Of a stretch of 51,910 bases of DNA, positions 3,646 to 41,502 are shown piece by piece (position 1 is the first letter of the stretch; the number at the start of each line of letters is the position of its first letter). The notes below the pieces were generated by a model. It was not told the DNA's origin. It ran no database searches and saw only the letters and a list, made by a program, of their open reading frames with translations. The DNA comes from Lentisphaerota bacterium (lineage in GTDB: Bacteria > Verrucomicrobiota > Kiritimatiellia > RFP12 > UBA3636): positions 1-51,910 of the forward strand of contig JALHHX010000004.1 of the NCBI GenBank assembly GCA_022837245.1, given 5' to 3'. The translations under genes were made by a program, and so were the position numbers.

Positions 3646-3652
3646 TCATCGC

Positions 3653-3680
3653 GCCACGGCTACGCAATGCAAGCTGTGGC
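3653..3680. terminator. Hairpin between convergent genes (possible bidirectional terminator)
   Basis: GCCACGG (3653-3659) pairs with CTGTGGC (3674-3680) at 6 of 7 positions, with a 14-nt loop. It sits between the stop codons of the ligase and the ABC gene. There is no clear U-tract. Confidence 0.3.
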
Positions 3681-5557
3681 TAGCGGCGGCATAGCGCGGC
3701 ATAGTAGCCGTCTTTGGCGAGGAGGTCTTCGTGGTTTCCGGATTCGAGAATTTCGCCTTTGTGCATAACTAGGATCGTGTCGGCATCGCGGATTGTGGAG
3801 AGCCGGTGGGCGATGACAATGCTTGTGCGTCCGCACATGAGGCGGAGCATGGCCTGCTGGATGTGCATCTCAGTGCGCGTGTCGACGTTTGAAGTGGCTT
3901 CGTCGAGGATGAGGATCGCGGGATCCGAGAGCGCGGCGCGCGCTATTGATAGGAGCTGGCACTGGCCTCGAGAGAGGGCGGTGTCGGCTTGGTTGATCTT
4001 GGTGTCGTAACCTTCCGGCAGGCGGTCTATGAAGAGGTCCGCGTTTGCGAGTTTTGCGGCTGCAATGATTTGCTCGCGTGTGGCATCGGGGTTGCCGAAG
4101 CTGATGTTGTCGGCGACGGTGCCCGTGAACAGGTGGGTATCCTGGAGAACGACGGCCATGTTTTTGCGCAGGTTTTTCTTGGCTATGTCGCGAACATCGA
4201 TGCCGTCGATCGTTATGCGGCCTTCTTGGATTTCGTAGAAACGGGTGAGGAGGCTGACTACGGTGGTTTTCCCTGAGCCCGTTTCGCCGACGAGTGCGAC
4301 TTTGGTGCCTGGCGCGACGTGCAGTGAGAAATTGCGCAGGACTGTGGTTTCGGGGTTGTAGCCGAACGAGACGTTGTCGAAGACAATCTGGCCGCGTGTT
4401 TCGGGGCGGGAGAGGTGGCGTTTGCCGGCGTCTTCCTCCGGGGGCATGTCGAGCATGGTGAAGACGCGCTCCGCGCCGGCGATGGCCGACTGTATCATGT
4501 TAAACTGCATGGCGAGTTCGTTGACCGGGCGCCCGAACTGGCGTGAGTACATCATGAACGAGATGATGACGCCGACGGTGATTTGGCCCTGTATCGCGAG
4601 CCATCCGCCCGCGACGACGACGAGCAGGAACGAAATGTTGTTGATTAGGTTCATGGCCGGGCCCATCATGCCGCCGCGGACTTCGGCCTTGAAACTGACG
4701 CGCCGCAGCTCCTCGGAGATGTAGTCGAATTCCTCGTCTACAATCTCCTCCCGGCAAAACGCCTGGACAACGCGTTGCCCGGTGATCATCTCCTCCGTCA
4801 ACGCATTGAGCTCCCCGACTGCGCGCTGGCGTTTTCGGAAGATTTTGCGCGAGATTTTGGCAATGACGCGCCCAACGATGGCGGACACCGGCAGGGTGAT
4901 GCAGGCGACGAGCGTCATACGCCAGCTTATGATCACCATGAAACAAAACGTACCGACGAGAGAGATTATGGTGCCGGCGAAGTTGAGCACGCCCGGGCCG
5001 AGCGTGTTGGCGACCATGTCGGTGTCGTTCGTTAGGCGGCTCATGAATTCGCCGTGCGTGATAGTGTCGAAGCGTTTGATCGGGAGCGACTGGACGTGGT
5101 GGAAGAGCATCTGGCGCATGTCGCGCACGGAGTGGTTGGAAAGCATCGTGGTCCCGTATCCGAGGAGCACGCCTGCGAACTGCCCTACTATGTTTGCGGC
5201 GAGTCCGACCGCCATGACTCCGGCGAGCTTGCGGAAATCCACAGATTCGCCGGGGCCGAGAGTCATGATGTCGGTCGCGAGTCCGAGGACGCGCGGCCAG
5301 ATGAGGCCGGTGACGGAGCCGACGGCGAGGGGGATCAGGAGCAGCACCATGAAGCGACGGCGGCCTTTGAGGAGGCGGAGCAGGCGCCGCATCGTTGCGA
5401 CGGGGTCCTTCGCGTGTTCGACCATGCCGTAGCGGCCGGCGCGGCTGCCGTAGCCCAGGCGCGAAATGTGGTGCGGCACGTGGCCGGCGGCGCGTGAAGC
5501 AGCATCAACGCGGGATGTGCGCTCTTGGCGGGTTTTTGAGGATTTATCAGGATTCAT
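3680..5557 (-). CDS. ABC exporter, fused permease/ATPase subunit (MdlB-like half of a heterodimer)
   Basis: Six-TM exporter domain followed by Walker A GETGSGKTT, signature LSRGQCQLL and Walker B ILILDEATS. The Gly-rich N-terminal extension before RRLLRLLKG is typical of B subunits. It overlaps the upstream partner by 11 nt. Confidence 0.9.
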   Translation of the reverse strand: MNPDKSSKTRQERTSRVDAASRAAGHVPHHISRLGYGSRAGRYGMVEHAKDPVATMRRLLRLLKGRRRFMVLLLIPLAVGSVTGLIWPRVLGLATDIMTLGPGESVDFRKLAGVMAVGLAANIVGQFAGVLLGYGTTMLSNHSVRDMRQMLFHHVQSLPIKRFDTITHGEFMSRLTNDTDMVANTLGPGVLNFAGTIISLVGTFCFMVIISWRMTLVACITLPVSAIVGRVIAKISRKIFRKRQRAVGELNALTEEMITGQRVVQAFCREEIVDEEFDYISEELRRVSFKAEVRGGMMGPAMNLINNISFLLVVVAGGWLAIQGQITVGVIISFMMYSRQFGRPVNELAMQFNMIQSAIAGAERVFTMLDMPPEEDAGKRHLSRPETRGQIVFDNVSFGYNPETTVLRNFSLHVAPGTKVALVGETGSGKTTVVSLLTRFYEIQEGRITIDGIDVRDIAKKNLRKNMAVVLQDTHLFTGTVADNISFGNPDATREQIIAAAKLANADLFIDRLPEGYDTKINQADTALSRGQCQLLSIARAALSDPAILILDEATSNVDTRTEMHIQQAMLRLMCGRTSIVIAHRLSTIRDADTILVMHKGEILESGNHEDLLAKDGYYAALCRR

Positions 5558-7283
5558 TTTCGTTCAACCCTCTCAGCGAATCCTGCGAATCGCAGATGTC
5601 GCGGTATGCCGCGCTGGTGCGTTTTAATTCCTCGTGCGGGCCTATGCCGGTTATGATGCCGTCCTCGATCAACACGATGCGGTCGGCATCCATGACAGAG
5701 CTGACGCGCTGCGCGATTTTGATGACCGTCATTCCTTCCATTTCGCCGCGGAGCGCACTCTGGATCTTGGCTTCGGTTATGACGTCGACGGCAGAAGTGC
5801 TGTCGTCCAGGATTAGTATTTTCGGTTTTTTGAGTATGGCCCGCGCGATGGAGAGGCGTTGCTTCTGTCCGCCCGACAGCGTGACGCCGCCCTGTGCTAT
5901 TTTCGTCTCGTAGCCGTGAGGGAATTGGTCGATGAATTTCGTGGCGCCGGCGATGCGCGCGGCGTGCTCGACCTCTTCGTCGGTCGCGTTTTCATTTCCC
6001 CAGCGGATGTTTTCCGCGATGTTGCCGAAGAAGAGGCGTGTTTCCTGCATGACGATGCCTATTGAATTGCGCAAGGCATCCAGAGAGTATTTGCGCACGT
6101 CCATGCCTCCCACGAACACCTCCCCTTCTGTGGGGTCGTAAAAGCGCGGGAGAAGGTTCACGAGCGAGGTTTTGCCAGCGCCGGTGGAGCCCATGATGGC
6201 TATGTGCTCCCCGCTTCTTATCGAGAGGGCGATATTGCGGAGCACGGGGTCGCCAGCGGCGGCGGGATATTTGAAGGAGACGTTCCGAAACTCGATCGAG
6301 CCGTCTGGCGGAGGTTCGTCAATGGGGCCGCTGGTGATGGATGGCGCCGTGTCAAACACCTCGTTTATGCGTTGCGAGGAGACCATCGCGCGAGTGAGGT
6401 GCATGATCTGGGTGCTGAGGGTTATGAGCGACATCATGACCTGCGTGGCGTAGTTGATGATGGCGGACACCTCGCCGATTTTGATAAGTCCGCGGTTGAT
6501 GTCGCGCGCGGAGATGAATACGATTGCGATCACGGTCAGGTACTGCACGAACGAGAGCCAGGGGCCGAGGGCGACCATTATCTTGCCGGTTTTGACGCTC
6601 GTCTCGGTCAGGCGCTCGTTGGCCTCATCAAAGCGCTCTCGTTCGTGCGGCTCGCTCGCGAACGCCTTGACCACGCGTATGCCAGTGAGGTTTTCCTGCA
6701 TCACGATGTTGACGTCGTCGAGCCGCGTCTGGATCTGCTTGTAGAGTGGACGTGTTATCTTAATCCGCCAGACTACTATAGCGGATAGCACCGGTGCGGC
6801 TGCCAGCAGCGGGATCGAAATGCCGGGGTTTGTGACCATCACCAGGTAAATGCTTCCCAGCAGGACAATCGGGGTGCGGAAGAGCATCCGCGTGATCATG
6901 ATCAGGCCATGCTGCAGTATGGTGATGTCGCGGGTGAGTCGCGTCACGAGCGAGCCCGTGGTGAATTTGTCGGTCTCTGCGAACGACAGGCGCTGGATAT
7001 GGCGGAAGAGGCTGCGCCGCATGTCGTTGCCGAACGAAAGCGCGGCGCGGCTCGAGCAGACGGAGCTTGCGAAACCGGCGAACAGGCCGATGATCGCGAA
7101 GATCAGCATCCGGACTCCGTAGTGGCGGATGGCGTCCTGATTGCTGAGCGTGACGCCCTCGTCCACGATCTGGCTCATGAGCTTGGGCTGCATCAAGTCC
7201 ATGGAGATTTCCAAGACCATGAGCGCCGAGGACAGGAGAAGCCAGAATAGTTGTGGTTTTAGAAACTTCAGTAGGCGGCGCAT
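5547..7283 (-). CDS. ABC exporter, fused permease/ATPase subunit (MdlA-like half)
   Basis: Walker A GSTGAGKTS, signature LSGGQKQRL and Walker B ILILDDSTS, with an N-terminal TM exporter domain. Confidence 0.9.
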   Translation of the reverse strand: MRRLLKFLKPQLFWLLLSSALMVLEISMDLMQPKLMSQIVDEGVTLSNQDAIRHYGVRMLIFAIIGLFAGFASSVCSSRAALSFGNDMRRSLFRHIQRLSFAETDKFTTGSLVTRLTRDITILQHGLIMITRMLFRTPIVLLGSIYLVMVTNPGISIPLLAAAPVLSAIVVWRIKITRPLYKQIQTRLDDVNIVMQENLTGIRVVKAFASEPHERERFDEANERLTETSVKTGKIMVALGPWLSFVQYLTVIAIVFISARDINRGLIKIGEVSAIINYATQVMMSLITLSTQIMHLTRAMVSSQRINEVFDTAPSITSGPIDEPPPDGSIEFRNVSFKYPAAAGDPVLRNIALSIRSGEHIAIMGSTGAGKTSLVNLLPRFYDPTEGEVFVGGMDVRKYSLDALRNSIGIVMQETRLFFGNIAENIRWGNENATDEEVEHAARIAGATKFIDQFPHGYETKIAQGGVTLSGGQKQRLSIARAILKKPKILILDDSTSAVDVITEAKIQSALRGEMEGMTVIKIAQRVSSVMDADRIVLIEDGIITGIGPHEELKRTSAAYRDICDSQDSLRGLNENES

Positions 7284-10368: not shown

Positions 10369-11652
10369 CTACTTGCCGAGTGGCGTGGTGGAGAAGAGTT
10401 TGCCTTCGCGCCAAACGCCACTGTGGCGCGAGCCGTCTGGCTGGACGTAAGTTCCTTCGCCCGAGATCATTCGTCCCGCTTTCCACTCTCCATTGACTTT
10501 GCCGCCATTGGCGTAGGTGAAGACACCTTTGCCGTGCGGGACGTCGTTCTTCCAGTTGCCGGAGTACTTGTCACCGCTGACGTAGGTGAAAGTCCCCACC
10601 CCGTTCCTCTTGCCTTTGCGCCATTCCCCTTCGAAGAATTCGCGGTCGTTTCTGCAGATCATTCCGAAGCCTTCGAACTTGCCGTTTTTCATCCCGCCCT
10701 GGTATAGCGAACCGTCGGGCATTTTGATGGTATTGGGGTCGTTTAGGAAGCGCCTGTACTGTTCTGCGACCGAGAGCCTGTACTCGGCGTCCCCGCCCGG
10801 CGTGGGAGGGGTTGCCGCTTCAGCCGCCTGAACGGGTTTGACTGGTTCGACCGAGGCTACTGATTCGGGTTTTACCGTCGTGGCGGTGTTCGCTTCGGGC
10901 ACAGCAGTAGGCTGTGGCGTGGCAGCGGGGAACGCCATGGCGGAGGCGGCCGCAATGGCGGCGATTTCGGGTGATATGCCCCCCGCCTGAACGGGCGCCG
11001 GACGGACAGAGGGACGGCGGGCCGGCTTAAAGACCGCTATAGCTTCTCCTGTTGCCAATTCCGCGGCGGTTTTGCCGACTTTGTTTTTAACGGTGGCGGA
11101 CGCACCCTTCGACAGGAGGAATCCCGCGAAAGCGCCTTTGCCGCCCGATGCGGCGAGATGGAGCGCGGTGCCGCCGCGGCCGTCCTGGGCGTCGATGGCG
11201 GCTCCGGCTTCGAGGAGGAATTTAGCGACCTCGGTGTTTCCACTACGCGCCGCGAAGTGAAGCGGAGTGAAGCCGTTCTTGGCGGCTGCGTTCACATTGG
11301 CATTCTGTTTGAGCAGCAGACGCAGCGTGTCCTTCGCGCCTTTGTCGGCCGCCCAGTGCAGAGGCGTGGTGAGGCTGCCCTCCGTCTGGGTATCAACGGA
11401 CATGCCGGCGTTGAGCAGACGGAAGACGGCCTCCGTGCTGTCGAGCGAAGCGGCATAGTGCAACGGCGTTATGCCGGCGCCAGTGCGCGACCCGAGGGTG
11501 GCTTCCTTGTTTGTGCTGAGCATCGTGGACACGGCGTCCATGTCATTAAGCATGATCGCGCCGAAGATGTCGCCCGCGACTGATTTTCCCGTCTGGGCCG
11601 ACGCGATTCCCGCGCATGTTGCGACCAGTGCCGCTATTATCTGTTGTTTCAT
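10369..11652 (-). CDS. Secreted ankyrin-repeat / MORN-repeat fusion protein
   Basis: Signal peptide MKQQIIAALVATCAGIASAQ. About five ANK repeats (G.TPLH.AA..G....V..LL..GA). A Pro/Ala-rich linker. C-terminal MORN repeats (YxGxWxxGKxxGxG, about 5 copies). Confidence 0.85.
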   Translation of the reverse strand: MKQQIIAALVATCAGIASAQTGKSVAGDIFGAIMLNDMDAVSTMLSTNKEATLGSRTGAGITPLHYAASLDSTEAVFRLLNAGMSVDTQTEGSLTTPLHWAADKGAKDTLRLLLKQNANVNAAAKNGFTPLHFAARSGNTEVAKFLLEAGAAIDAQDGRGGTALHLAASGGKGAFAGFLLSKGASATVKNKVGKTAAELATGEAIAVFKPARRPSVRPAPVQAGGISPEIAAIAAASAMAFPAATPQPTAVPEANTATTVKPESVASVEPVKPVQAAEAATPPTPGGDAEYRLSVAEQYRRFLNDPNTIKMPDGSLYQGGMKNGKFEGFGMICRNDREFFEGEWRKGKRNGVGTFTYVSGDKYSGNWKNDVPHGKGVFTYANGGKVNGEWKAGRMISGEGTYVQPDGSRHSGVWREGKLFSTTPLGK

Positions 11653-31187: not shown

Positions 31188-34100
31188 TTACCTGAATATT
31201 ATCATCGTCTCGTTCGGGGGTGGGAGGTGTTCATATACACCGATCTCCACCGAGGAGCCGATGATCCGATCCATGCCGAGCGGATCATCGGCTCCGGCCA
31301 TCCAGTCTAGGACTTCCCCCGCGTCGATGCACGGCGAATGGTTGGCCAGACGGAAGTCGGACGAACCCACATTGTAGAACATCGGGGCTGCGCTGATAGA
31401 GTTTGTCGTCGAGTATTTGTCGTTACCTATGTCTATGGCCAAATTAGCGGACGGGTTGCCGTGGAGGTTGTTGTAGCGGTCAACAAGTACATCCATCCAA
31501 TCGTTGTCAGAGTTTATACCATATTGCGCGTTGTTAGCGGAAATCGTGTTGCGCACGGTCATGCCGGAACGCGGCGACAAGACAATGCCGCTTTTGTTTG
31601 CGTAAACAACGCAGTTCTCCACGATGCCGCCGCCCGTGTCAACCCCGCTCTGGATTCCGTTGCCCAGATTGCGATAAATTTCAGATTCGCGAATGGTGAA
31701 ATCCGAACCGCGCCTATAAAACCACTCATATCCTGCGGGAGCCGGTTGGTTGTGATCGTAGTTGAAACCAATTCCGCTGTTTTCGCGTATGATGCTGCGA
31801 AAGACCTGGTCTAGTCCGCACCCGGAGAAGTTAAGACCGGCCCCCGTGTTATTGGCGACAACGCAACGGTCGAATGAGTTTGCTGGACTAAAGTTCTCGC
31901 CATGGATTCCATTAACGCCATTCGTCAAGACGGAGACATCGTTGAAAACGCCGCCGCCAGACTTGCTAAGCCAAACCCCATGGCCACCGTTGCCGGCGAT
32001 AATGGTGTTTTCCATACCATTGGCTGGCGAGTTGGTAGAGGCAACGCCGTTGCGGCTGTTCCCGATGATTGTCAGATTCTTAAACTGATTTCCGTACGAG
32101 CCAGACAATGCCACGCCGTCCACGGCGTTGCGTATATCGAAGCCTTCGAGAGTTACCGACTCTACCGCCTGGAGCTTGACGGCATAGGGAAGCGATCCGC
32201 CGCCGTCTATTATGGCGGTTCCGCCGTCGGAGCGCACCGCGACCCCCGACTTTGTGAATACGACTTCCTGCTCATAGGTCCCCGGCTGGACAAGAATGGT
32301 GTCGCCTCGCTCCGCAACGTCGGCGGCTCGCTGAATTGTAAGAAAAGCCCCGCCAGCCGCGTTTACCAGCCCGGAGCTGGAGTCGTCGCCGTCTGTTCTA
32401 ACATAATACGTTTCCTGTGAGGGCAAGTCCAATGGCTCCCCGGCCGGGTACACGCCGATGTGTCGGCCGTCGTTCCCGGCGTTAAGGCAAGCTGAAGTTT
32501 CGTACAGACGGAAATCGCCTGCGAATGGATCGACGAAAAGCGGATTGCCGGTGACAGAGTGTCCCCCGATGTTGTCGCCCGCATGCGACCTGTACAGATA
32601 TTCGCCCGCGTTTCCGAAAATCAGGTTGTAGTCGGCGGTAAGCGGTGTGCTCGACTCCCAGTCGTTAGCCTTCGCGAAGGCCGGTCCGAGATTGCCGGCG
32701 ATGATTGTGTTGCGCACGCTGACCGACGCGCGAGGATCTTGAAACACTCCGGCGTACCGGTTGCCGAATACTACGCCGTTCTCAACCAGCCAGCCTCCGT
32801 TGTCAACGCCAAGATGAATGCCGAAGCCGGAGTTGGAATGCACACGGCACTCGCGTATAACACCGTAGTCACCATCGCCGTTACCATCGGATTTCAGTCC
32901 ATCCCGCAAGTTGCTGTGCAGGTTGCATCCAATAAGAGAAAACCACGCACTGCCGTTGATAAGGTGCACGCCATCCTCAATAGCATTGCGAATTTCGAAA
33001 CCCTCGATAGAAATATAGTCCGCTTTGTCGAGCCTGAATCCAGAGGAACGCACGCCCCCGCCATCAACAACGGGGGTCTCTCCTGATTTTGCGACGATGC
33101 GGTTCGCCTTTCCCGCAGTCCCCGAATGGGCGGAATTCAGCGACACCATTTCCGGATACGTGCCGCCGGCGACAATAACCATGTTGCTTGCTGTAGCATA
33201 GAAGACCGGGTCGTCAACACCTTCTTGTATGGTCCGGTAGGCAGTTTCCCAAGATATCCCGTCAAATACTGGACCCGGCGATGCGGTATCGACGTAAACA
33301 ATGCCACCATCGACCGCAGTCGGTGCAGGACGGTTTGTAATCGTGACAGTCGCAACCCCCGGAGGTGTAATCTGGTAGCTCCCCTCGTCGAGCGTCAGAA
33401 CGACAGTCGTGTCACTCTGAGAACTCCAGTCGTTTATAGCGGCAACTGTGACTGTGGCCGACGAAACGCCTGACGGCAATGTTACCCCAACACCCAAAGT
33501 CCCCGCATAGTTCACACCCGGTACGGCCGTACCACCAACTGAATACGGAACAAACATTGAAAAATTAGCCGCAGTTTCGGGACGAGTGATTGTGAAAGAG
33601 CCATAAACCGGCCCTATTTCAGAGGCCTGAGTCGTCGCTTCCGCTGAAATCTCTCCGGTTATTAGCACTGCCGTTTCTTCCGTCCAGACCGTCTCAACCT
33701 CGTTGCTGGCGGCGAAACGGAAGAAATAGGCGGTGTTTGCCGAGAGCCCGGTCAGCTCGTATGTAAAGTCCCCGGGGTTTTGCGGAGCGGCCAAAACAGC
33801 TGAATTAGCCCATGATGAAGCATTTGTTCCGCCATCGGCCGTCCCCCAATATATGGAAACCGCCGTTGATGCAGTACCGGTAGATGTGAGCAAACCTTTG
33901 ATCCATGCGGACGATAGCGTGACATTTGTCGCAGGTAGCGTTTCAATATTGAGCGGGGGAATTGCCGGGATGCTTTCAACACCTACAAATTCTATCTCAC
34001 GATAGCCGACGTGACCGTTCTCCTGAGCACCGAAATTGATACGCAAGGAGTGGACGTTCTGGGCAATCGGACCACCGACCGCAGTGTAACGGACAAGAGC

Positions 34101-34556
34101 TGTAGACGTTCCGCCTTCGTAGTTTACGGCCGTGCCGGGTATGACGATAAAGGTTGTGGGATCGTTTGCCGTGGAACAGGCAAGACTAGTCACTGTGATG
34201 TTATCACGTCCGGAATCCGCCCAACCAGAGTAGAGATTGACTCCAGTGATATCGTAGCCCAGTTCCGCATTCCCCAGAGCATAAGTCAGCACGGCGTTGT
34301 CGCCGATCGTATAGGTGTTCGCTTTGTCGTGGATAATTGAGCCATCGGTCAATTTTGTCACAGGGCCAGTGCTTTCTGCCCCTGCGGCGCCGTTCGCCAC
34401 CGCGCTGGGCTCCATGCCGGCAATCAAGTTGCCTTCCGCCGACGTGAACGAGTACGTGTTGGTCGTTGAAATGGATATAGTGCCGACCTCTGCCTTTGCA
34501 CAGATTACGGCGACAAACGAAATCATGAATCCAAGTATTTGAACTGTTTTTTTCAT
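31188..34556 (-). CDS. Secreted multidomain protein: jelly-roll (discoidin-like) domain, FN3-like domain, Calx-beta-like domain, then two right-handed parallel beta-helix modules
   Basis: Signal peptide MKKTVQILGFMISFVAVICAKA (ATG at 34556). Beta-helix module openers YVDTASPG...YRTIQEGV and TYYVRTDGDDSSSG...AFLTIQRAADVAERGDTILVQPGTYE. Repeated NxxxGxG rungs. C-terminus DFRLANHSPCIDAG...VEIGVYEHLPPPNETMIIFR. Confidence 0.85.
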   Translation of the reverse strand: MKKTVQILGFMISFVAVICAKAEVGTISISTTNTYSFTSAEGNLIAGMEPSAVANGAAGAESTGPVTKLTDGSIIHDKANTYTIGDNAVLTYALGNAELGYDITGVNLYSGWADSGRDNITVTSLACSTANDPTTFIVIPGTAVNYEGGTSTALVRYTAVGGPIAQNVHSLRINFGAQENGHVGYREIEFVGVESIPAIPPLNIETLPATNVTLSSAWIKGLLTSTGTASTAVSIYWGTADGGTNASSWANSAVLAAPQNPGDFTYELTGLSANTAYFFRFAASNEVETVWTEETAVLITGEISAEATTQASEIGPVYGSFTITRPETAANFSMFVPYSVGGTAVPGVNYAGTLGVGVTLPSGVSSATVTVAAINDWSSQSDTTVVLTLDEGSYQITPPGVATVTITNRPAPTAVDGGIVYVDTASPGPVFDGISWETAYRTIQEGVDDPVFYATASNMVIVAGGTYPEMVSLNSAHSGTAGKANRIVAKSGETPVVDGGGVRSSGFRLDKADYISIEGFEIRNAIEDGVHLINGSAWFSLIGCNLHSNLRDGLKSDGNGDGDYGVIRECRVHSNSGFGIHLGVDNGGWLVENGVVFGNRYAGVFQDPRASVSVRNTIIAGNLGPAFAKANDWESSTPLTADYNLIFGNAGEYLYRSHAGDNIGGHSVTGNPLFVDPFAGDFRLYETSACLNAGNDGRHIGVYPAGEPLDLPSQETYYVRTDGDDSSSGLVNAAGGAFLTIQRAADVAERGDTILVQPGTYEQEVVFTKSGVAVRSDGGTAIIDGGGSLPYAVKLQAVESVTLEGFDIRNAVDGVALSGSYGNQFKNLTIIGNSRNGVASTNSPANGMENTIIAGNGGHGVWLSKSGGGVFNDVSVLTNGVNGIHGENFSPANSFDRCVVANNTGAGLNFSGCGLDQVFRSIIRENSGIGFNYDHNQPAPAGYEWFYRRGSDFTIRESEIYRNLGNGIQSGVDTGGGIVENCVVYANKSGIVLSPRSGMTVRNTISANNAQYGINSDNDWMDVLVDRYNNLHGNPSANLAIDIGNDKYSTTNSISAAPMFYNVGSSDFRLANHSPCIDAGEVLDWMAGADDPLGMDRIIGSSVEIGVYEHLPPPNETMIIFR

Positions 34557-34653
34557 GTAACACCCCATCTGTTTTGTTGTTGCGTGGAATCCAATAATGC
34601 TCCGCATGATACTGTTGGTAGGTGGAAAAGAGATAGCTTAACTTTTGAGAAAA

Positions 34654-36474
34654 TCAAATCTCAGTCAACATTGTTGAGGATGCGGGAAGCACCTTTAAAA
34701 TACGTATCTCGTCTGGTGCGAGTGTCTGACTGGCCGGTGCAGGCGCGCCATCCCATGTGGCAAGCGATTCGCCTTCTTCGGGAAGACGCACCGAGACGCG
34801 CCGCAATTTGCGAGTCAGGTTCACAATCATCAAGGCACGGGTTCCATCGTCCTGTTCGGCGCATGCAAGGAAGACGTCGAAATCTCCTGAGAGGGTTGGC
34901 GCTCCGGCTAGAGGCGCGATAACGCGGCGGATTGCACCTAGAACCGCATCGCGTGTTTCGGGCGGCGTCGAGTGCCATACGCACGGCACTATTATCCAGC
35001 CGGGCTTTGTGAAGAGAGACCCGTCGCGTGTCCACTCCGTTGCCGACTCGAACGTGACGATCCCGCCGTCGCCCTCAACCACATTATCCACGCCAAGACT
35101 GCGGCGTAGCTGCGAATCATGAAGCAAAGCCGAGCCGTCAAGCACAACTGTTGATCCTTCAAGCCACTCATGCGGAGTGTCAAGCACGGCACGTCCCATG
35201 ACTGCCACAACACGCGCGCCGCCGGGTGGCACCTGACCGGGCGAACGCGTGACAACCGTGCCTATTCCCGCAAGGTTGAACCATGGGAATATTTGGCGGT
35301 CCGCTGCACGCTTGACTGGATCGCTTGAGCCGAACCCGGCGGCTGGAGTACGTAGGATTACAACAGGATTGACCAACCGGGAGCGATCACCGAAAGCCGC
35401 GCTCCATTGCCGGATTTCCGGAAGATCGGCTTCCAGGAAGTCCTGGTGGCGGATCCATCCATCTACGCATGGACAGTAGGAAATTTCCTTAACCCCGGCT
35501 GCAAGCGCTAGCGCGATTTTCTTGCGGATGTCCTCATGACGAATGCCTTTGAAATAAGTCGTCTCGCTGAGCACCTCGACGGAAGGCGGCAGCCAACCGA
35601 CGTGGTGTGATACGGAGAGATACGACAGCACAGGCCCCTGCGGGTCGCTGTATTCGTTAGGACCGAAGTGCCCTTCCCCAGCTCTTACACGCACGTCGCC
35701 CTTGAAGCTTGGAAACAATTGATCGAGATCGATGCCGTCTCGCTCTTCGCCGCCCCAGCGAACCATGAGACCGAGCTTTAGCTTTGGGTTGACCGACCTG
35801 CCTATATTGCCGACGGCCTCCCAGAGTGCGGTCAGACGATCGACCTTCATGCGGATCCACTCCCCGTGCAGCTCGGCGCTATTCATGACGTCAACGCGCC
35901 GTACCGTACGGCCGACGCGTTCAGACAGCTCAGCCATGCAACGGTCGCAGTAGCAAGAAGCGGTGCTTCCAGCCGCATTGCCTGCTCCTTGGTCGCCATC
36001 GACTCGGTAATCATCGTCGTACCAAATCTCGTCGAACACCTCGGCTAGCGCACGCATGATGTTCACGTTCCCTTTCATGCATGCATCATCCGGGCAGGCA
36101 CAGCAGAAGACGGGATTCCCGAATTCGTTGACGGCGTATCTCCAACTGCGTGGCAGCGGCCCGGCGGTCTGCCAGTCCGCCGCAACCAATCCGCCCGTGT
36201 AGAACGGTATGGGATCAGGGGGAGTATCGCGTCCGCCGTAATACTTGTCCATCGCAGGGTGCCCGATCGCGTAGATCATGCCGAACACGGCGATGCCGTC
36301 GCCTTCGAGGCGGCGGCGCATTCGCAGCATCGCTTCCGGCTCGCCCATGAGCTTTCCGGTCATAGAGGCGGTGATTGCTATTTTACCAATGGCCTGCCGC
36401 CGGCATGATTCCAGAATTTTGTCGTACGATTCTTCCAAATGCGCCGCGGATACGGCGTACGCGCTTATTTTCAT
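34654..36474 (-). CDS. Cys-rich cytoplasmic hypothetical protein (possible TIM-barrel glycosidase-like N-terminal half)
   Basis: 606-aa ORF with coherent composition and no signal peptide. Cys clusters FCCACPDDAC, SCYCDRC and SYCPC. The ATG at 36474 is 8 nt after the upstream stop. The function call is weak. Confidence 0.65.
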   Translation of the reverse strand: MKISAYAVSAAHLEESYDKILESCRRQAIGKIAITASMTGKLMGEPEAMLRMRRRLEGDGIAVFGMIYAIGHPAMDKYYGGRDTPPDPIPFYTGGLVAADWQTAGPLPRSWRYAVNEFGNPVFCCACPDDACMKGNVNIMRALAEVFDEIWYDDDYRVDGDQGAGNAAGSTASCYCDRCMAELSERVGRTVRRVDVMNSAELHGEWIRMKVDRLTALWEAVGNIGRSVNPKLKLGLMVRWGGEERDGIDLDQLFPSFKGDVRVRAGEGHFGPNEYSDPQGPVLSYLSVSHHVGWLPPSVEVLSETTYFKGIRHEDIRKKIALALAAGVKEISYCPCVDGWIRHQDFLEADLPEIRQWSAAFGDRSRLVNPVVILRTPAAGFGSSDPVKRAADRQIFPWFNLAGIGTVVTRSPGQVPPGGARVVAVMGRAVLDTPHEWLEGSTVVLDGSALLHDSQLRRSLGVDNVVEGDGGIVTFESATEWTRDGSLFTKPGWIIVPCVWHSTPPETRDAVLGAIRRVIAPLAGAPTLSGDFDVFLACAEQDDGTRALMIVNLTRKLRRVSVRLPEEGESLATWDGAPAPASQTLAPDEIRILKVLPASSTMLTEI

Positions 36475-36482
36475 GTGCCAAA

Positions 36483-37021
36483 CTACCTTATCAGTATCAT
36501 GCCCATATCATTGCCAAAAAATTCGTAGGCGCCCATGTCCACAACCTTGTGGTGTATGCGCGGGTTGCCAGCAAAATCCAGAGCTTCATCCATCCATTCC
36601 ACTACGTTTTCCCCCTTGTTGCGACATGGGGATCTCCAGTCGAGCGAGTAGCAGAAATACAACCGTTGTTCGTGCTGAATGCGAGAATCGAAACCTTACC
36701 CACATCAGCCATGAGCACCGCCTCGGGATTCCGGACGCCGTTCCAAGGGATGTCCGCGTTGGGACCCCTGAGGGTTACAGGAACTGCGACATTGATCGCG
36801 GTGGGATATTCGCCTGCGGCGACCTCCACTACATCGCCATCCGCAACATGAATCATCGCATTAGTAATAGACGCCCAAGGGGTGGCCTGATTCTCCGCCT
36901 CCGCAGGCGTACGCGCATCGTTCCCATTGTTGGCATCGACATAATAAGTCGTCGCCATAGCCCCGCCCGCAAAGGCAAATCCGGCTGTTAGGAGTCCCAA
37001 TATGCACTGTAACGTTTTCAT
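36483..37021 (-). pseudogene. Mini paralog (about 179 aa if repaired) of the beta-helix family: signal peptide, N-terminal cap and C-terminal tail module. Split by a 1-nt frameshift in a C4 run (G4 at 36628-36631 on the plus strand).
   Basis: The listed 139-aa ORF (MKTLQCILGLLTAG...TTYYVDANNGND...GDVVEVAAGEYP) stops at 36602. A second frame continues PCRNKGENVVEWMDEALDFAGNPRIHHKVVDMGAYEFFGNDMGMILIR to a stop at 36483-36485. Changing C4 to C5 fuses them as ...STGDPPCRNKG... Confidence 0.6.
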
Positions 37022-37287
37022 ATCAATCTCCGAAGCTTATTGTTTTTTGTAAAGCCGTAGCTCAACTTTCACGAGTGATTAAACCAGAACCCACACCATA
37101 ACGCAAGGGGAAAAAAACACTCTGAATATACAAAAAAACTATTTCTATACAAAGCGTGCTATGTAGGACTAGGTTGGCTTCGCTGCACGATGCAGCGCGA
37201 AAACGCTATCGAAGCACTCCACTATCCAATTATTCCTTTGTCCATGGCATCTAGCTTCTTATTTGCGCCTGTTCCCCATACCCTATT

Positions 37288-40200
37288 TTACCGCACAATC
37301 ATCATCGACGGTGCCGTGAACACTTCGTAGGCTCCGATGTCGACAATGCCGCCCGCGATGCGCGGGTTGCCGTCCAGATCGAAGGCCGTGGCCTCGCCCT
37401 TGGCCATCCAGAGCTGGTTCGCGCCCGCGTCCACGCACGGCGAGGCCGCGAGAATGTGGAAGTTCCCGGTGGCGCGGCCGCGGTAGAGCGGATCGACCGA
37501 GATCGAGTTGACCGGTGTGATCGCGTTGCCCGAGAAAGCCGTGCCGTTGCCGAACACGTCGCAGTTGACCACGCTCAGTCCGTACTGCGTCTCCCGGTAG
37601 ATGCCGCTGCCCGTGTTGAAGGTGACCGCCGTGTTGCGGATCAACGTGGCGTCGCCGCCGAAATAGTTGACGTGGATTCCGCCGCCGTTGCCGTCGAAAA
37701 CGGAGTTCTCGAAAGTCCAGTTGTGTGAGGCGGAGTCCCGAGCGGTGGCGAAGCCGTAGCCCGTGTTCTGGTAGACGAGGCTGTTGCGGACGACGCCCCA
37801 GACCGCGCCGCCGACAGAGCCGCCGCCGTAGCGGCCGCTGTAGATTCCAGCTCCCGTGTTCCCGAAAACCCGGCAGCGGTCGAAGAACGTCTCTCCAGAG
37901 AGATAGAGCAAGGCGCCGTTGACCTTGTTGCCCGAAATTGACGTGTTGACGAACTCGGCCTCGTGCGAGCGGTTGAGGAAGGCGCCTGCGAGCTTGCTGC
38001 CGGTCAGCGCGCAGTTTTCGAAGCGGCAGCCCTGCGCCTCGTTCAACTCGACGCCGTTGCCGTTGGCCGCCGTGAACGCGAAGCCCTTGAAGGCCACGCG
38101 ATTGGCGCCTTGCATCGAGAGCGCGGGGCCGGAGGCGTTTGTCACCGCCACCGCGCCGTCGGCCACGAAGCGCACCCACTGGTCGCCGGAGCCGCCGGTG
38201 GCGATCGTCGCGCCCGCTGCGTACGTCCCCGCCTGCACGCGCACGGTGTCGCCCGGCGTCACGGCGTCCGCCGCCTTCTGCAGCGTCAGGAAGGCGCCTG
38301 CAGGCGTGTTGTCGAGGCCGGTGTTCGCGTCGCTCCCGTCGAGTCGCACGTAATACGTCTGGATCGGCGGGAGCGCGACGCGCGGCCCGCTCGGGCTTGG
38401 CCCCAGGTCTTCGCCGTTGACGCCGTAGCCGGCCGCCGGCGCGCCTTCGTAGAGCCGGAAGTCGTTGGCCCACGGCGCGACGAAGCCCGGATCGGCCCAG
38501 AGGTTGTTGCCGCCGTCGATGAAGTGCTTGACGCCCGGCACGAAGTGGTTGCGCGCGGCGTAGAAGCACGTGTAGCTCACCCGCACGCCGGTGCCGTAGT
38601 CGGCATCGGGATACAGGTCGTACTGGTGGTTCGCCGCGAGAATGCTGTTCGTCAGCACCATGCCGCTGTTCCAGGCGCCCTTGTCGATGCCGCTGCCGTA
38701 GTTGCCGTACGCCAGACATGCGTCGATGATCCAGTTGTCGGAATGCGAGTCGCGCTGCAGCGCGACGCCCGAGCCCGTGTTGCGGAGGAACCGCGAACGG
38801 CGGAGGACCACGTTGTCCGAGCCGGCGGCGCTGTTGTTCGGTCCGGCGTAGATGCCGTTCTGCTTGTTCCACCCGAAGGTCGAGTCGTGGACGGTCGTGT
38901 AATTGGCGGCGTAGAGGTAGAGGCCGTGCGAGGTGTTGTTGGTCGCCAGGCAGTGGGCCACCACGTTGTTGGGCGAGCTGAGCAGCTGGATGCCGTACGT
39001 TCCGCTGCTGGCCGCCGTCAGATTCGTCAGGACGCAGTTGCGGGAGGCGCTGAGGCGCACGCCATCGGATCCGGCGCCGCCGGTCACGGCGAAGCCGTCC
39101 AGCACGATCCCGGCGGAGGCGTCGAGCAGGAAGGCGTGCCCGCCGCCCGTCACCTGCACCGCGCCGTCGGCCACGAACGTCGCCTGAAGGCTGGAGGGGG
39201 CGACGAGGGAGATGACGACGCTCTCGTTGTACGTTCCCGGCTGCACCCGGACCGTGCCGTTGGCGCCGACGGTCGAGGCCGCCTTCTGGATCGTCAGGAA
39301 CGCGCCGCCCGGCGTGTTCGCGAGCCCCGTGTTCGAATCGCTCCCGTCGGTGCGCACGTAGTAGGTCGCGGCGCCCGGCAGGGGCGCCCCGGCCCCATCG
39401 GGCCACACGCCCATGTCGATGCCCGCGAGGCCCGTGTCAATGGAAGGGGATCCGACGAACAAGTGGAAGTCGGTGGCGCCGGGGTTGACCAGCAGCGGAT
39501 CGGCGGAGATCGAGCCGGTTCCCGCCGTGAACCCGGAATAGTTGGCAAACGTGTTGCCGTAGACGTTGTTGTAGGTGCAGGCGATGCCGGCGCTGGTGCC
39601 GGCCGGCCCGACGCCGTTGCCCCGGTTGAAGCACACGATGCTGTTCCGGAGCACATGGCCCGAGCACCAGTGGCCCGCCGTCATGCCCGAGCCGCCGTTG
39701 TAGACGACCGCGCAGTTGTCAACCGTCCAGTTGCTGCAGTAGGAGTCGCCTTCCAAGCAGATGCCGTGGGCGTTGTTCGCGAAAATCGAGCACCGGTAGA
39801 GCGTCACGTAGTTGGCGAGACGGCGGCCGGCGGCGAGGTTCGCGCCGCCGTAGAGGCCGCTCCCCGTGTTCCGGGCGATGTGGCAGCGCTCGATGCGGGA
39901 CGCCCCCTTGCCATAGAAGTGAATGCCATGCGAACCGTTCCAGATCACCTGCGAGTCCACCATCGTCAAACCGGCGCTCTCGTTTACGAAGACGCCGTAC
40001 GACGTGTTCCGGGCGACGATGCAATTGGTGACGCGCGACTCGGACGCAAAGTCGAGCCTGATGCCGTGGGTGGCGTTCGAGAAGCAGAGGCCGTCGAGGA
40101 CGTTCCAGCTAGCGCGGTCGATCGTCGCCGCCGCCACGGTGCCGGTCACCGTCACCGCGCCGTCCGCGACGAAGCGCACGGGGCTGTCGGCCGTGCCGGA

Positions 40201-41502
40201 AGCCGTCAGCGTGAAGGTGTCGTAGACGCCCGGCTGGACGCGCACCGTGTCGCCCGGCGTCGTCAGGGACGCGGCCTTCGCCAGCGTCAGGAAGGCGCCG
40301 GATGCGTCGTTGGAGAGTCCGGTGTTCGCATCGCTGCCGTCGGAGCGGACATAGTATGTTTCGATCGTGGGAAGCGCCACGACGGAGCCTTCGGGGTAAA
40401 GTCCGAGATCCGTGCCGCCATCGCCAAGCGCCTGGCAGTCGGAATCGGCGTAGAGGCGGAAGTCGCCGCGGTCGCCGGCGACAAAGCTTGGCGCGACCGC
40501 GTAGGGCGAATTGAGCGTGAGGCGGGTGGTCGTGGTATAGGGCAGTCCGTTGCCCCAGAACGCCGTCCGGTTCGCCACCACCGTCGCCGAAGAGTGGTTG
40601 ACAACCATCAGCCCCACGGTGCCGTTGTAGGCGATGATCGTGTCGAACACGGTCGACGAGCAGGTTTCCCAGTTGTAGAGGCCGGACTGGGTGTTCGCAT
40701 AGAGCACGCAGTTGGTGATCACCCACCCCGTGCTTTTGGAATTGTGCTGCAGCGCGATGCCGCTGGACTGGTTAGCGTTGTTGCCGCCATTCTTGTAGCT
40801 TGAACTCAGCGACAGTCCGTTCTGATAAATGGCGCAGCGTTCCAATGTGATGTTGTCGGACTCGTAGGTTGCGGAGTTCTGGGTCCCTCCGCGGATGCCG
40901 TTGTAGCGGTTGCCGTGGATGGCCGCGCCGACGACGCGGCTGTTGTCCGTGTTCTCGAAGGCGATGCCGTCCGACCGGTTGTGGGCGTACGAGCCCCCGG
41001 TGATGGTGAAGGACTGGCCGTCCCGCAGGAGCAGGCCGACGCCCGTGTTGCCGCAGGACGAGACGTTGGTCAGCGCGTTGTTGGTGGACAGCGAGAGGAA
41101 CTTGATGCCCTCCGCCGTGGCGTTCGTCACGCTCAGCCCATCGAGCACGAGCCAGGAGACGCCCGTCGCGGCGATGCCGTTTGCGCGCGTGGCGCCGCCG
41201 TCGATGACAACCGCGCCGCTCGTGTTCGCCTGGATGCGGTTGGGTGCGCCGCTGGCCCCGCTGTTGTCCGCAGCCAGCGTCACGGTCTCCGGATACACGC
41301 CCTCCGCAACGAGAATCGTGGCGTTCGACGTGCTGGTGAAGGCGGCGCTGTCCACCGCCGCCTGGATGGTGGTATAGGCGTCGAGCCAGGACGTGCCGTC
41401 GTTGGCGCCCGTCGCCGCCGCGTCGACGAAGATCTCCGCTGCCGAAACCACTCCAGTCATCCCGGCGAGTATGAATCCAAGTATTCGAGCTGTTTTGTTC
41501 AT
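37288..41502 (-). CDS. Giant secreted protein made of four tandem right-handed beta-helix modules
   Basis: SD GGAGA lies 6 nt upstream of the ATG at 41502. Signal peptide MNKTARILGFILAGMTGVVSAA. Module openers sit at ORF residues about 41, 401, 732 and 1068, and three of them read TYYVR.DGSD.NTGL......GAFLT..KAA......GDTVRVQ.GTY. Each module ends DF(R/H)L(Y/F). The C-terminus is SPCVDAG...DIGAYEVFTAPSMMIVR. Confidence 0.85.
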   Translation of the reverse strand: MNKTARILGFILAGMTGVVSAAEIFVDAAATGANDGTSWLDAYTTIQAAVDSAAFTSTSNATILVAEGVYPETVTLAADNSGASGAPNRIQANTSGAVVIDGGATRANGIAATGVSWLVLDGLSVTNATAEGIKFLSLSTNNALTNVSSCGNTGVGLLLRDGQSFTITGGSYAHNRSDGIAFENTDNSRVVGAAIHGNRYNGIRGGTQNSATYESDNITLERCAIYQNGLSLSSSYKNGGNNANQSSGIALQHNSKSTGWVITNCVLYANTQSGLYNWETCSSTVFDTIIAYNGTVGLMVVNHSSATVVANRTAFWGNGLPYTTTTRLTLNSPYAVAPSFVAGDRGDFRLYADSDCQALGDGGTDLGLYPEGSVVALPTIETYYVRSDGSDANTGLSNDASGAFLTLAKAASLTTPGDTVRVQPGVYDTFTLTASGTADSPVRFVADGAVTVTGTVAAATIDRASWNVLDGLCFSNATHGIRLDFASESRVTNCIVARNTSYGVFVNESAGLTMVDSQVIWNGSHGIHFYGKGASRIERCHIARNTGSGLYGGANLAAGRRLANYVTLYRCSIFANNAHGICLEGDSYCSNWTVDNCAVVYNGGSGMTAGHWCSGHVLRNSIVCFNRGNGVGPAGTSAGIACTYNNVYGNTFANYSGFTAGTGSISADPLLVNPGATDFHLFVGSPSIDTGLAGIDMGVWPDGAGAPLPGAATYYVRTDGSDSNTGLANTPGGAFLTIQKAASTVGANGTVRVQPGTYNESVVISLVAPSSLQATFVADGAVQVTGGGHAFLLDASAGIVLDGFAVTGGAGSDGVRLSASRNCVLTNLTAASSGTYGIQLLSSPNNVVAHCLATNNTSHGLYLYAANYTTVHDSTFGWNKQNGIYAGPNNSAAGSDNVVLRRSRFLRNTGSGVALQRDSHSDNWIIDACLAYGNYGSGIDKGAWNSGMVLTNSILAANHQYDLYPDADYGTGVRVSYTCFYAARNHFVPGVKHFIDGGNNLWADPGFVAPWANDFRLYEGAPAAGYGVNGEDLGPSPSGPRVALPPIQTYYVRLDGSDANTGLDNTPAGAFLTLQKAADAVTPGDTVRVQAGTYAAGATIATGGSGDQWVRFVADGAVAVTNASGPALSMQGANRVAFKGFAFTAANGNGVELNEAQGCRFENCALTGSKLAGAFLNRSHEAEFVNTSISGNKVNGALLYLSGETFFDRCRVFGNTGAGIYSGRYGGGSVGGAVWGVVRNSLVYQNTGYGFATARDSASHNWTFENSVFDGNGGGIHVNYFGGDATLIRNTAVTFNTGSGIYRETQYGLSVVNCDVFGNGTAFSGNAITPVNSISVDPLYRGRATGNFHILAASPCVDAGANQLWMAKGEATAFDLDGNPRIAGGIVDIGAYEVFTAPSMMIVR

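Follow-up and report, generated by a model that had tools for sequence, protein, structure and literature searches.

A short strand-like C-terminal tail follows the choice-of-anchor Q module in secreted beta-helix proteins of Kiritimatiellia- and Lentisphaeria-type bacteria

Three loci on the reverse strand of the window (the whole stretch analysed, 51,910 nucleotides) encode a short hydrophobic C-terminal ending that terminates in Arg. The largest, p1 (37288-41502), is an intact ORF of 1404 aa, which begins MNKTARILGFILAG and ends DIGAYEVFTAPSMMIVR in translation, and comprises four tandem right-handed beta-helix modules, a choice-of-anchor Q cap and the tail. The beta-helix region reaches the Pfam gathering score (203 bits; Beta_helix, PF13229, 2.6e-60; NosD, PF05048, 4.8e-33). 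Modules start with TYYVR at aa 382, 713 and 1049; this junction strand lies at 38344-38358 between modules 3 and 4, with equivalents at 39352-39366 and 40345-40359. The cap (37324-37473; SPCVDAG..WM..DLDGNPRI..VDIGAYE) scores 34.9 bits with NF041518, for which the cut-off is 25, and the model ends one residue past GAYE. An 11 aa tail, VFTAPSMMIVR (37291-37323), runs to the stop codon (37288-37290). Metagenomic orthologs end in SMLIVR, SLMMVR, SLMIVR or TLYILR.

The second gene, p2 (31188-34556), is an intact, secreted-type ORF of 1122 aa, from MKKTVQILGFMISF to EIGVYEHLPPPNETMIIFR, with an N-terminal non-helix region, two beta-helix modules (Beta_helix, 5.3e-29; 101 bits, gathering score reached), the choice-of-anchor Q-like cap and the tail. 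The p2 cap (31230-31361; SPCIDAG..WM..GMDRI..VEIGVYE) scores 23.7 bits with NF041518, slightly below the cut-off, and aligns column for column with that of p1. Its tail, HLPPPNETMIIFR (13 aa; 31191-31229), ends in MIIFR, and an internal junction strand TYYVR (32397-32411) forms a beta-strand in the AlphaFold2 model (residues 157-160). In sister strains p2 is frameshifted.

Putative Sec-type signal peptides can be read at the starts of both genes: MNKTARILGFILAGMTGVVSA followed by AEIF in p1 (41440-41502), with a basic n-region and hydrophobic core, and MKKTVQILGFMISFVAVICAKA followed by EVG in p2 (34491-34556). The leaders of the three loci, described in the original prediction as near-identical, have just 6-7 of their first 14 residues in common (an ILG core) and appear to be ordinary Sec-type leaders, with AxA-like sites VSA/A (in p1), AKA/E and AMA/T. 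These features mark p1 and p2 as predicted Sec-exported proteins in which choice-of-anchor Q precedes the tail; their endings MMIVR and MIIFR, as originally reported, are present in the ORF translations.

The third locus (36483-37021) is a frameshifted deletion remnant, a pseudogene. Its N-terminal frame (36602-37021), starting MKTLQCILGLLTAG, encodes 139 aa to a stop after ATRGKT, the same length as called in the Logan assembly, and contains a putative signal peptide, MKTLQCILGLLTAGFAFAGGAMA, and a beta-helix N-cap with weak matches to LIC10774 and DUF1565. The C-terminal frame (36483-36695), out of frame with the first, encodes a choice-of-anchor Q cap (NF041518, 30.3 bits, above the cut-off) and the tail FFGNDMGMILIR (36486-36521), ending in MILIR. 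Because the entire beta-helix core is absent, the locus is a deletion remnant rather than a paralog of about 120 aa. Thus two of the three genes proposed to share both ends are intact, while in the third the ends lie in different frames; the shared SPC(V/I)DAG module likewise holds for p1 and p2, but the remnant reads SPCRNKG. The range of body sizes, from about 120 to about 1350 residues, which had been taken as an argument for separate selection on the ends, loses its lower member to the pseudogene.

The window has 728 stop-to-stop frames of 40 aa or more, of which those at the three loci alone have an ending of the form M-[MILVF]3-R; by a rough estimate, ~0.03 such endings would be expected by chance. 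Codons differ between the local tails (CGG vs AGG, ATT vs ATA), and conservation therefore acts on the protein level. It also extends well beyond the local paralogs, contrary to the confinement to three loci that would have spoken against the original prediction. A set of 99 distinct tails, drawn from metagenomes and PVC-type MAGs, gives the consensus G-[TSN]-h-h-x-h-[R>H,F,P,Q,K]-COOH. The pentapeptide first proposed, M-[MI]-[IL]-[VFI]-R, was therefore too narrow; what is conserved is G-[TSN]-h-h-x-h-R. Gly occupies position -7 in 70 of the 99, and T, S or N position -6 in 76; positions -5, -4 and -2 are hydrophobic and -3 is variable. The last residue is R in 67 tails, H in 9, F in 7, P in 5, Q in 4 and K in 3, and a free Arg-COOH is therefore not obligatory.

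The ending is common among secreted beta-helix proteins of Kiritimatiellia/Lentisphaeria-type bacteria. The named genomes that carry it are Kiritimatiellia, those with Lentisphaer- names and 'Verrucomicrobiota' MAGs only, in addition to one unlabelled rumen MAG (L042), and it is absent from all Bacteroidota, Planctomycetota, Leptospiria, Acidobacteriota and Cloacimonadota loci examined. Tail-bearing relatives have leaders resembling those of p1 and p2, and NF041518 is also passed by two of them (L006, 30.7 bits; L097, 29.9 bits). Many tail paralogs occur per genome in PVC-type bacteria. Many of the choice-of-anchor Q relatives used share less than 50% identity.

The original prediction held that the xDxGAYE block is of a kind that precedes alternative C-terminal anchors. 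This is borne out: the block belongs to choice-of-anchor Q (NF041518), and homologs carry various ends at this position. Counted from the E of GAYE, the stop lies 11-14 residues away in 66 of 157 choice-of-anchor Q ORFs (11 residues in 19, 12 in 38, 13 in 5 and 14 in 4) and 5-10 or 15-24 residues away in none; in PEP-CTERM versions the distance is spread across 25-37 residues. In a sample of ~1.8 Mb of related loci, chance would place the tail pattern after GAYE 0.7-3.5 times, and it was observed there 21-22 times. Among the other ORFs of this ~1.8 Mb, those of 300 aa or longer show no instance (0.28 expected) and those of 60 aa or longer show eight (3.5 expected), mostly in spurious frames. 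Two unselected flank genes with the tail also encode choice-of-anchor Q proteins. Two possible carriers outside this family, L053 5790-6086 (ending LLHYEPPPMGTVIIFR) and L133 2620-2919 (ending LEKTPAGTMILLK), are doubtful, as an assumed frameshift is needed to connect each to a long gene. These two apart, the ending was not found on several unrelated exported families in the ~1.8 Mb of loci, and a portable C-terminal sorting tag is not supported there.

No known sorting signal accounts for the ending. As had been pointed out, the tail is far below the length of known CTERM signals, and none of the Pfam or NCBIfam models covers it. For PEP-CTERM (TIGR02595) there is no NCBIfam match, and the tails have 4-5 hydrophobic residues with one Arg and no PEP (TAPS, PPPNE and GNDMG instead). 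A T9SS C-terminal domain (TIGR04183) was rejected, with no model match and just 11-13 residues past the cap; for LPXTG/sortase and GlyGly-CTERM/rhombosortase there is no motif or helix in the last 40 residues and no model match. The 52-kb window contains no exosortase-like gene. In the loci examined, the tail is accompanied neither by a conserved neighbour nor by a gene resembling a sortase, exosortase or peptidase, and tail-bearing loci have no PEP-CTERM-like ends. In one PEP-CTERM locus (L008), the signal is present on two further ORFs within 14 kb, neither of which matches the choice-of-anchor Q query.

The near-chance occurrence on other ORFs, the quantised spacing from GAYE and the lack of a partner gene speak against the independent export, anchoring or processing tag originally put forward. 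Since its 11-14-residue spacing after one cap domain is fixed, the tail is more likely to be a closing strand than a new general signal. We put at about an even chance that it is a domain-intrinsic closing strand or extension of an 'anchorless' choice-of-anchor Q cap, and not a portable sorting signal. In this mechanism, Sec export and signal-peptide removal would be followed by folding of the beta-helix. Within the last 11-14 residues, the conserved Gly -7, in many cases with Pro before it, would then form a turn, and a 5-6-residue strand (T/S-h-h-x-h-R) would pack back on the D-x-G-A-Y-E strand and the adjoining W-M hydrophobic patch. An antiparallel register would set the terminal Arg across from the nearly invariant Asp of VDxGAYE and the variable -3 residue across from Gly, with -2 and -4 forming the buried face. 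In members with no following domain or membrane anchor, which would be released forms, the strand may thereby close off the last helix module at its hydrophobic end. Tail-bearing modules have the W-M dipeptide of the cap in 95% of cases, compared with 71% for the PEP-CTERM type, 38% where a domain follows and 0% for bare modules, a correlation that may reflect subfamily ancestry alone. Some homologous caps have two residues only past GAYE, or run directly into other domains; the cap can therefore fold without the tail, which counts against the closing strand.

The AlphaFold2 models of p1 and p2 are all-beta solenoids, for which Foldseek matches PL6 alginate lyase, Pel9A and AlgG folds; no solved structure holding a choice-of-anchor Q module was found. 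In p1 the last ten residues have pLDDT 58, compared with ~80 for the cap, and the tail has no DSSP strand; in p2 the tail has pLDDT 61-65 and no strand. This predicted lack of structure is the main evidence against a closing strand. A last buried strand without enrichment on other exported proteins had been anticipated as the simple explanation of the pentapeptide; the enrichment is indeed absent, but AlphaFold2 does not place a buried strand. The local tails MMIV, MIIF and MILI are hydrophobic on both strand faces, a pattern less suited to a surface hairpin than to a strand buried in lipid or at an interface.

The flexibility of the tail in these models would also fit a trans-acting C-terminal tag of minimal size, in which a hydrophobic strand with a basic terminus stays exposed and docks on an envelope component or another subunit. 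Docking by beta-augmentation or lipid insertion could lead to surface retention, secretion targeting or oligomerization without a transmembrane helix or sortase-type enzyme. The tail fills the exact slot that in homologs holds PEP-CTERM, a T9SS-CTD-like end or another C-terminal domain, has a strongly hydrophobic composition, ends in R or K in ~70% of cases, and is limited to the few taxa given above among named genomes. L053 and L133 could be carriers without choice-of-anchor Q, but both depend on the assumed frameshift; the tail is not portable across the ~1.8 Mb, its spacing from GAYE is rigid, its terminal residue is variable, and no co-located or recurrent partner gene was found. A tag of this type is rather unlikely. 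A more specific form, in which G-[TS]-h-h-x-h-R-COOH is a minimal signal for targeting or attachment in Kiritimatiellia and Lentisphaeria whose strand docks on an envelope receptor and needs no transmembrane helix or sortase-like enzyme, with choice-of-anchor Q proteins as main clients and L053/L133-like repeat proteins as minor ones, is unlikely. A minimal signal of that kind would be too short for HMMs to catch.

The analogy of the tail with TonB boxes ([DE]-T-h-h-V) and C-terminal PDZ ligands is functional only: these are strand-forming, mostly hydrophobic stretches of 5-7 residues that can be recognized through edge-strand pairing, and p2 ends E-T-M-I-I-F-R. TonB boxes, however, are N-terminal, in TonB-dependent transporters, and PDZ ligands have an apolar last residue. 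A short hydrophobic C-terminus on Sec-exported proteins, flexible in AlphaFold2, could also be a motif for periplasmic quality control or processing, such as a ligand of a PDZ-domain protease or of a tail-specific protease. Prc/Ctp and DegS-type PDZ domains favour an apolar or aromatic last residue, whereas that of the tail is mostly Arg, and a general degron would not be expected to stay within one domain family; we regard this function as very improbable.

Comparison with homologs and with internal junctions bears on the origin of the tail. PEP-CTERM choice-of-anchor Q proteins have the same cap (SPCxxxG..DLDGNPRI..VDxGAYE) on secreted right-handed beta-helix proteins, a similar start after it (GAYE-[FYW]-[IV]-P) and a basic last residue. 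They differ in having a PEP motif, a transmembrane helix of 15-20 residues and an Arg/Lys cluster, 25-37 residues in total; the tail has 11-14 residues, of which 4-5 are hydrophobic, and stays on choice-of-anchor Q proteins. In Bacteroidota homologs, the T9SS type A CTD (TIGR04183) follows choice-of-anchor Q and its last strand reads h-h-h-[KR] (KVIIK, KIIVK), but it is a folded beta-sandwich of ~70-100 residues as against 11-14 residues in PVC-type genomes. The T9SS, which recognizes this domain, is a system of the FCB group.

The p1 junction DLGxYPxG-x(8-9)-TYYVR is collinear with the terminal DIGAYE-x(6)-MMIVR, as are the four internal junctions of p1 and p2 (LPxxxTYYVR) with the tail; across the two proteins, D-x-G-x-Y-P-x-G-x(8-9)-T-Y-Y-V-R aligns in this way with D-x-G-A-Y-E-x(6-8)-h-h-h-h-R. 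The junction strand is of the type Y-Y-V-[RDS] followed by xDGSDxNxG, as in Pel9A/DUF1565-type modules, and strands such as NGIVYVD and PTTYYVD follow GAYE wherever a further helix module comes. At junctions, however, the strand is part of the next module and the residue after it is usually D, K or S; in the tail the strand closes the protein, with a linker shorter by 3-5 residues and R as the predominant last residue. The proposed closing strand may thus derive from the linker and first strand (LPxxxTYYVR) of what was once a further beta-helix module, cut directly after that strand.

The same resemblances could mean that the tail is a functionless vestige, either the first strand of a lost module, as the junctions TYYVR, NGIVYVD and PTTYYVD might suggest, or a PEP-CTERM signal minus its transmembrane core. 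PEP-CTERM homologs read GAYE-[FY]-[IV]-PEP-x-h(15-20)-R/K and many tails GAYE-x-[IV]-P-x-x-G-h4-R, so that GAYEF-IPEPG-LLIV[..]R could have given GAYEY-IPAGG-LFSIR; gene decay at the locus, seen in the remnant and in p2 of the sister strains, is in keeping with this. Against decay, the length, Gly -7, hydrophobic pattern and end point are kept across 99 distinct sequences, and the synonymous codon differences among the local tails indicate selection on the peptide. A vestige is improbable.

Choice-of-anchor domains serve to infer how surface proteins are sorted. A large subfamily of choice-of-anchor Q proteins (66 of 157 sampled ORFs) ends in a fixed strand-like tail with no known anchor, which is unregistered in annotation because the NCBIfam model ends at GAYE. 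On either reading, the ending no longer looks like a new sorting signal of general use, and one of the three local genes is a pseudogene. As a docking tag, the tail would give a little-studied phylum a sorting signal of unusually small size. If it is structural, it would mark released, anchorless forms of polysaccharide-lyase-like proteins, and better domain boundaries and construct design would be possible.

The minus-strand region 31188–41502 contains two long genes in intact form, a third that is short and broken, and an unrelated 606-aa ORF. The gene p1 (37288–41502, minus strand) encodes 1404 aa arranged as four tandem right-handed β-helix modules; modules 2–4 open with ..LPxxxTYYVRxDGSDxNTGL, at aa 382, 713 and 1049. 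Its neighbour p2 (31188–34556, minus strand) encodes 1122 aa with one module junction, at aa 716. As read from the sequence, the N-terminus of p1 is MNKTARILGFILAGMTGVVSA, with the cleavage site followed by AEIF, and that of p2 is MKKTVQILGFMISFVAVICAKA, with the cleavage site followed by EVG. At the C-terminus, p1 matches choice-of-anchor Q (choice-Q; NCBIfam NF041518) at 34.9 bits and the p2 cap scores 23.7 bits (cut-off, 25). The sequence between this cap and the stop codon, referred to here as the tail, is VFTAPSMMIVR in p1 and HLPPPNETMIIFR in p2. AlphaFold2 (AF2) models of the C-terminal parts of both proteins have a β-solenoid fold, and their Foldseek relatives are PL6 alginate lyase, pectate lyase Pel9A and alginate epimerase AlgG. 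Both proteins are members of the β-helix and choice-of-anchor Q families. The G+C content of the p1 body (37700–41300) is 65–70 %, compared with 50–60 % in p2, the 606-aa ORF and the flanks, and may reflect either a Gly/Ala-rich composition or a different origin; long spurious opposite-strand ORFs, such as 37963–40803, result.

The third local copy is a frameshifted deletion remnant, i.e. a pseudogene. One frame (36602–37021, minus strand) opens with MKTLQCILGLLTAG, retains the signal peptide and N-cap, and stops after 139 aa; another (36483–36695, minus strand) retains the C-cap (NF041518, 30.3 bits) and the tail, ending GAYEFFGNDMGMILIR. The entire helix core is missing. The Logan SRR18493544 assembly contains an identical copy of this locus in the same broken state, with the same 139-aa ORF called. 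The original prediction had emphasized conservation of the tail across bodies of 120 to 1350 residues, a contrast whose short member is in fact a decayed gene. In sister strains 99.7–99.8 % identical to the window (Logan SRR18493547, and GCA_022840655.1 contig JALHED010000033.1), an A-run near position 31678, within p2, is longer by one A (gaaattt to gaaaattt), splitting that gene into 958 and 124 aa; the insertion maps to positions 1687 and 3165 of the two sister loci (L139 and L140), and L140 also lacks approximately 40 bp matching 33208–33247. Either the gene is truly decaying in these strains or the frameshift is a sequencing error in the homopolymer.

The shared ending itself was confirmed, M-[MILVF]3-R occurring on 3 of 728 frames in the window, at just these three loci. 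The tail codons differ between the local copies and therefore the peptide is the conserved level; a DNA-level repeat or terminator as the cause of the shared ending was rejected on the same grounds, with no terminator-like site at the gene ends. Confinement of the tail to the three local copies was ruled out by C-terminal-region and profile searches, in which it was widespread. Metagenomic orthologues end in SMLIVR, SLMMVR, SLMIVR and TLYILR. A profile was built from 99 distinct tails, with positions counted back from the last residue (–1). Gly occupies –7 in 70 and Thr, Ser or Asn occupies –6 in 76; –5, –4 and –2 are hydrophobic and –3 is variable. The last residue is most often Arg (67), followed by His (9), Phe (7), Pro (5), Gln (4) and Lys (3). 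Cross-strand covariation between GAYE, the motif closing the cap, and the tail residues gave no independent signal, the sole association (GAFE with Val at –5) stemming from close relatives.

Among GTDB species genomes, the short tail was present on 15 of the 59 modules matched; the labelled metagenome-assembled genomes behind these 15 were Kiritimatiellia, Lentisphaer* or 'Verrucomicrobiota', and none of the 15 came from Bacteroidota, Planctomycetota, Leptospiria, Acidobacteriota or Cloacimonadota. JGI metagenome contigs yielded a large set of single-module secreted tail proteins of ~470 aa, with many paralogues per large contig and endings that include GAYEAVLRQGNIYRVR, GAYETRIWQGTIFKIP and GAYETIYEGTFYKMGF. 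Several of these (from L076, L089, L094, L097, L103 and other contigs) share a leader end, ..C-[MP]-A-/-D-T-H-Y-V, in which a conserved Cys precedes the likely cleavage site (slash) by three residues; the site may be either a lipobox variant or of AxA type. The choice-Q profile search matched 33,224 cluster representatives; the best 150 were mostly giant multi-module proteins, three of which had the tail (..TVFLFR, ..GTILMVR and ..GSLILIR), and the rest ended in T9SS-CTD-like strands, PEP-CTERM, dockerin-like domains or an 'FYRIRV..P' domain. In many giant choice-Q proteins (representatives P0006–P0155; loci L001, L007 and L022) ..FYR[IVL]R[VI]..P closes the terminal domain, and in many GAYE is linked to a ..SYAWLQQYGLPxDGSADxxDxDGDGMNNWQE.. 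segment; both are further alternative endings of the choice-Q cap.

The distance from the Glu of GAYE to the stop codon is quantised. Amongst 157 choice-Q ORFs it was 11–14 residues in 66 (mode 12), 2 in 10, 25–37 in 17 and more than 40 in 63, with none at 5–10 or 15–24. The 25–37 class comprises 16 PEP-CTERM-type endings (e.g. L008 and L049) and one tail with a longer linker (L093). In ~1.8 Mb of related loci, the pattern [GAPN][GTS]hhxh[RK]$ (h, hydrophobic) was found after GAYE 21–22 times, where its internal frequency would predict 0.7–3.5. Among other ORFs, those of at least 60 aa had it eight times (3.5 expected), mostly on spurious frames, and those of at least 300 aa not at all (0.28 expected). 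Two tail genes found by chance in flanks (L004, 13170–14453; L020, 16545–17969) also encode choice-Q proteins. By contrast, at the PEP-CTERM locus L008 the signal recurs within 14 kb on two more ORFs without a choice-Q query match. Two candidate carriers without choice-Q, ending LLHYEPPPMGTVIIFR (L053, 5790–6086) and LEKTPAGTMILLK (L133, 2620–2919), each require an assumed frameshift to join a long gene. So joined, the former (3029–6086) is a Gly-rich repeat protein ending HYEPPPMGTVIIFR and the latter spans 1863–2919. Neither matched a named family, and both share their Lentisphaerales-type contig with genes for tail-bearing choice-Q proteins.

When flank ORFs from 16 tail-bearing loci were clustered all against all, no gene family recurred beside tail genes; the only clusters were the β-helix family and synteny among three close relatives. 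The 52-kb window contains housekeeping and glycan-related genes, and no sortase-, exosortase-, rhombosortase- or peptidase-like gene. The 606-aa ORF between the β-helix genes (34654–36474, minus strand) lacks a signal peptide and had no Pfam, NCBIfam or PDB sequence match; tblastn detected no homologue in 59 genome loci, 15 of them tail-bearing, and it is therefore not a conserved tail partner. Elsewhere in the window, a 427-aa ORF (10369–11652, minus strand) combines ankyrin and MORN repeats, an arrangement resembling eukaryotic repeat proteins although the contig is bacterial. The quantised spacing, the near-chance frequency away from choice-Q and the lack of a recurrent neighbour argue against the proposal that the tail is an independent, portable tag.

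With regard to origin, the tail is collinear with the internal module junctions. In p1, the junction DLGLYPEG-SVVALPTIE-TYYVR, continuing into SDGSD, aligns with DIGAYE-VFTAPS-MMIVR at the C-terminus; in p2, HIGVYPAG-EPLDLPSQE-TYYVR aligns with EIGVYE-HLPPPNE-TMIIFR. The internal ETYY is a strand in the AF2 model. Elsewhere, a strand such as NGIVYVD or PTTYYVD follows GAYE only where it leads into another helix module. A tail-like strand as a general follower of internal GAYE was rejected (64 of 749 junctions, 8.5 %, vs 6.1 % background). As PEP-CTERM homologues start similarly after the cap (GAYE-[FY]-[IV]-PEP-G-h..), a PEP-CTERM signal with a deleted helix is an alternative origin.

The tail may well be a cis-acting closing strand of the choice-Q cap. 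A conserved Gly/Pro turn and a strand of 5–6 residues would fold back onto D-x-G-A-Y-E, in a putative register that would place the terminal Arg opposite the near-invariant Asp and the variable –3 opposite Gly, with –2 and –4 buried, perhaps on the W-M patch. Such a strand would explain why the tail has a fixed length and is coupled exclusively to the cap, as well as its profile and the variation in its last residue. The W-M patch occurs in 95 % of modules with the tail and 71 % of those of PEP-CTERM type, in 38 % of domain-followed modules and in 0 % of bare ones. Its role as a docking site is doubtful: it is correlated with the tail, yet found with many different followers, and may be a mere subfamily marker. 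The main evidence against a closing strand is the AF2 predictions, both of which leave the tail as a low-confidence coil (pLDDT 58 and 61–65). This coil, the existence of choice-Q caps without any tail, and the hydrophobicity of the p1, p2 and remnant tails on both strand faces keep alive a rather unlikely alternative, that the tail is a docking tag acting in trans. A functionless vestige is quite improbable, conservation over 99 distinct sequences being hard to reconcile with it.

As originally predicted, the tail is too short for a PEP-CTERM, T9SS CTD, LPXTG or GlyGly-CTERM signal, and it lacks every defining sequence feature of these four. Pfam and NCBIfam have no model that extends over it; NF041518 ends one residue past GAYE. 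PDB searches with the last module and the cap profile gave no usable precedent, the profile search finding no entry with the cap module, and no such tail was found in the papers searched on choice-of-anchor Q or on C-terminal sorting in Kiritimatiellota/Lentisphaerae. The tail would become considerably more notable only if it were shown to act as a tag. Real and frequent among PVC-type bacteria, and with a role that is probably structural, it is most suitably classed as a variant ending of a known domain that had not been modelled before.
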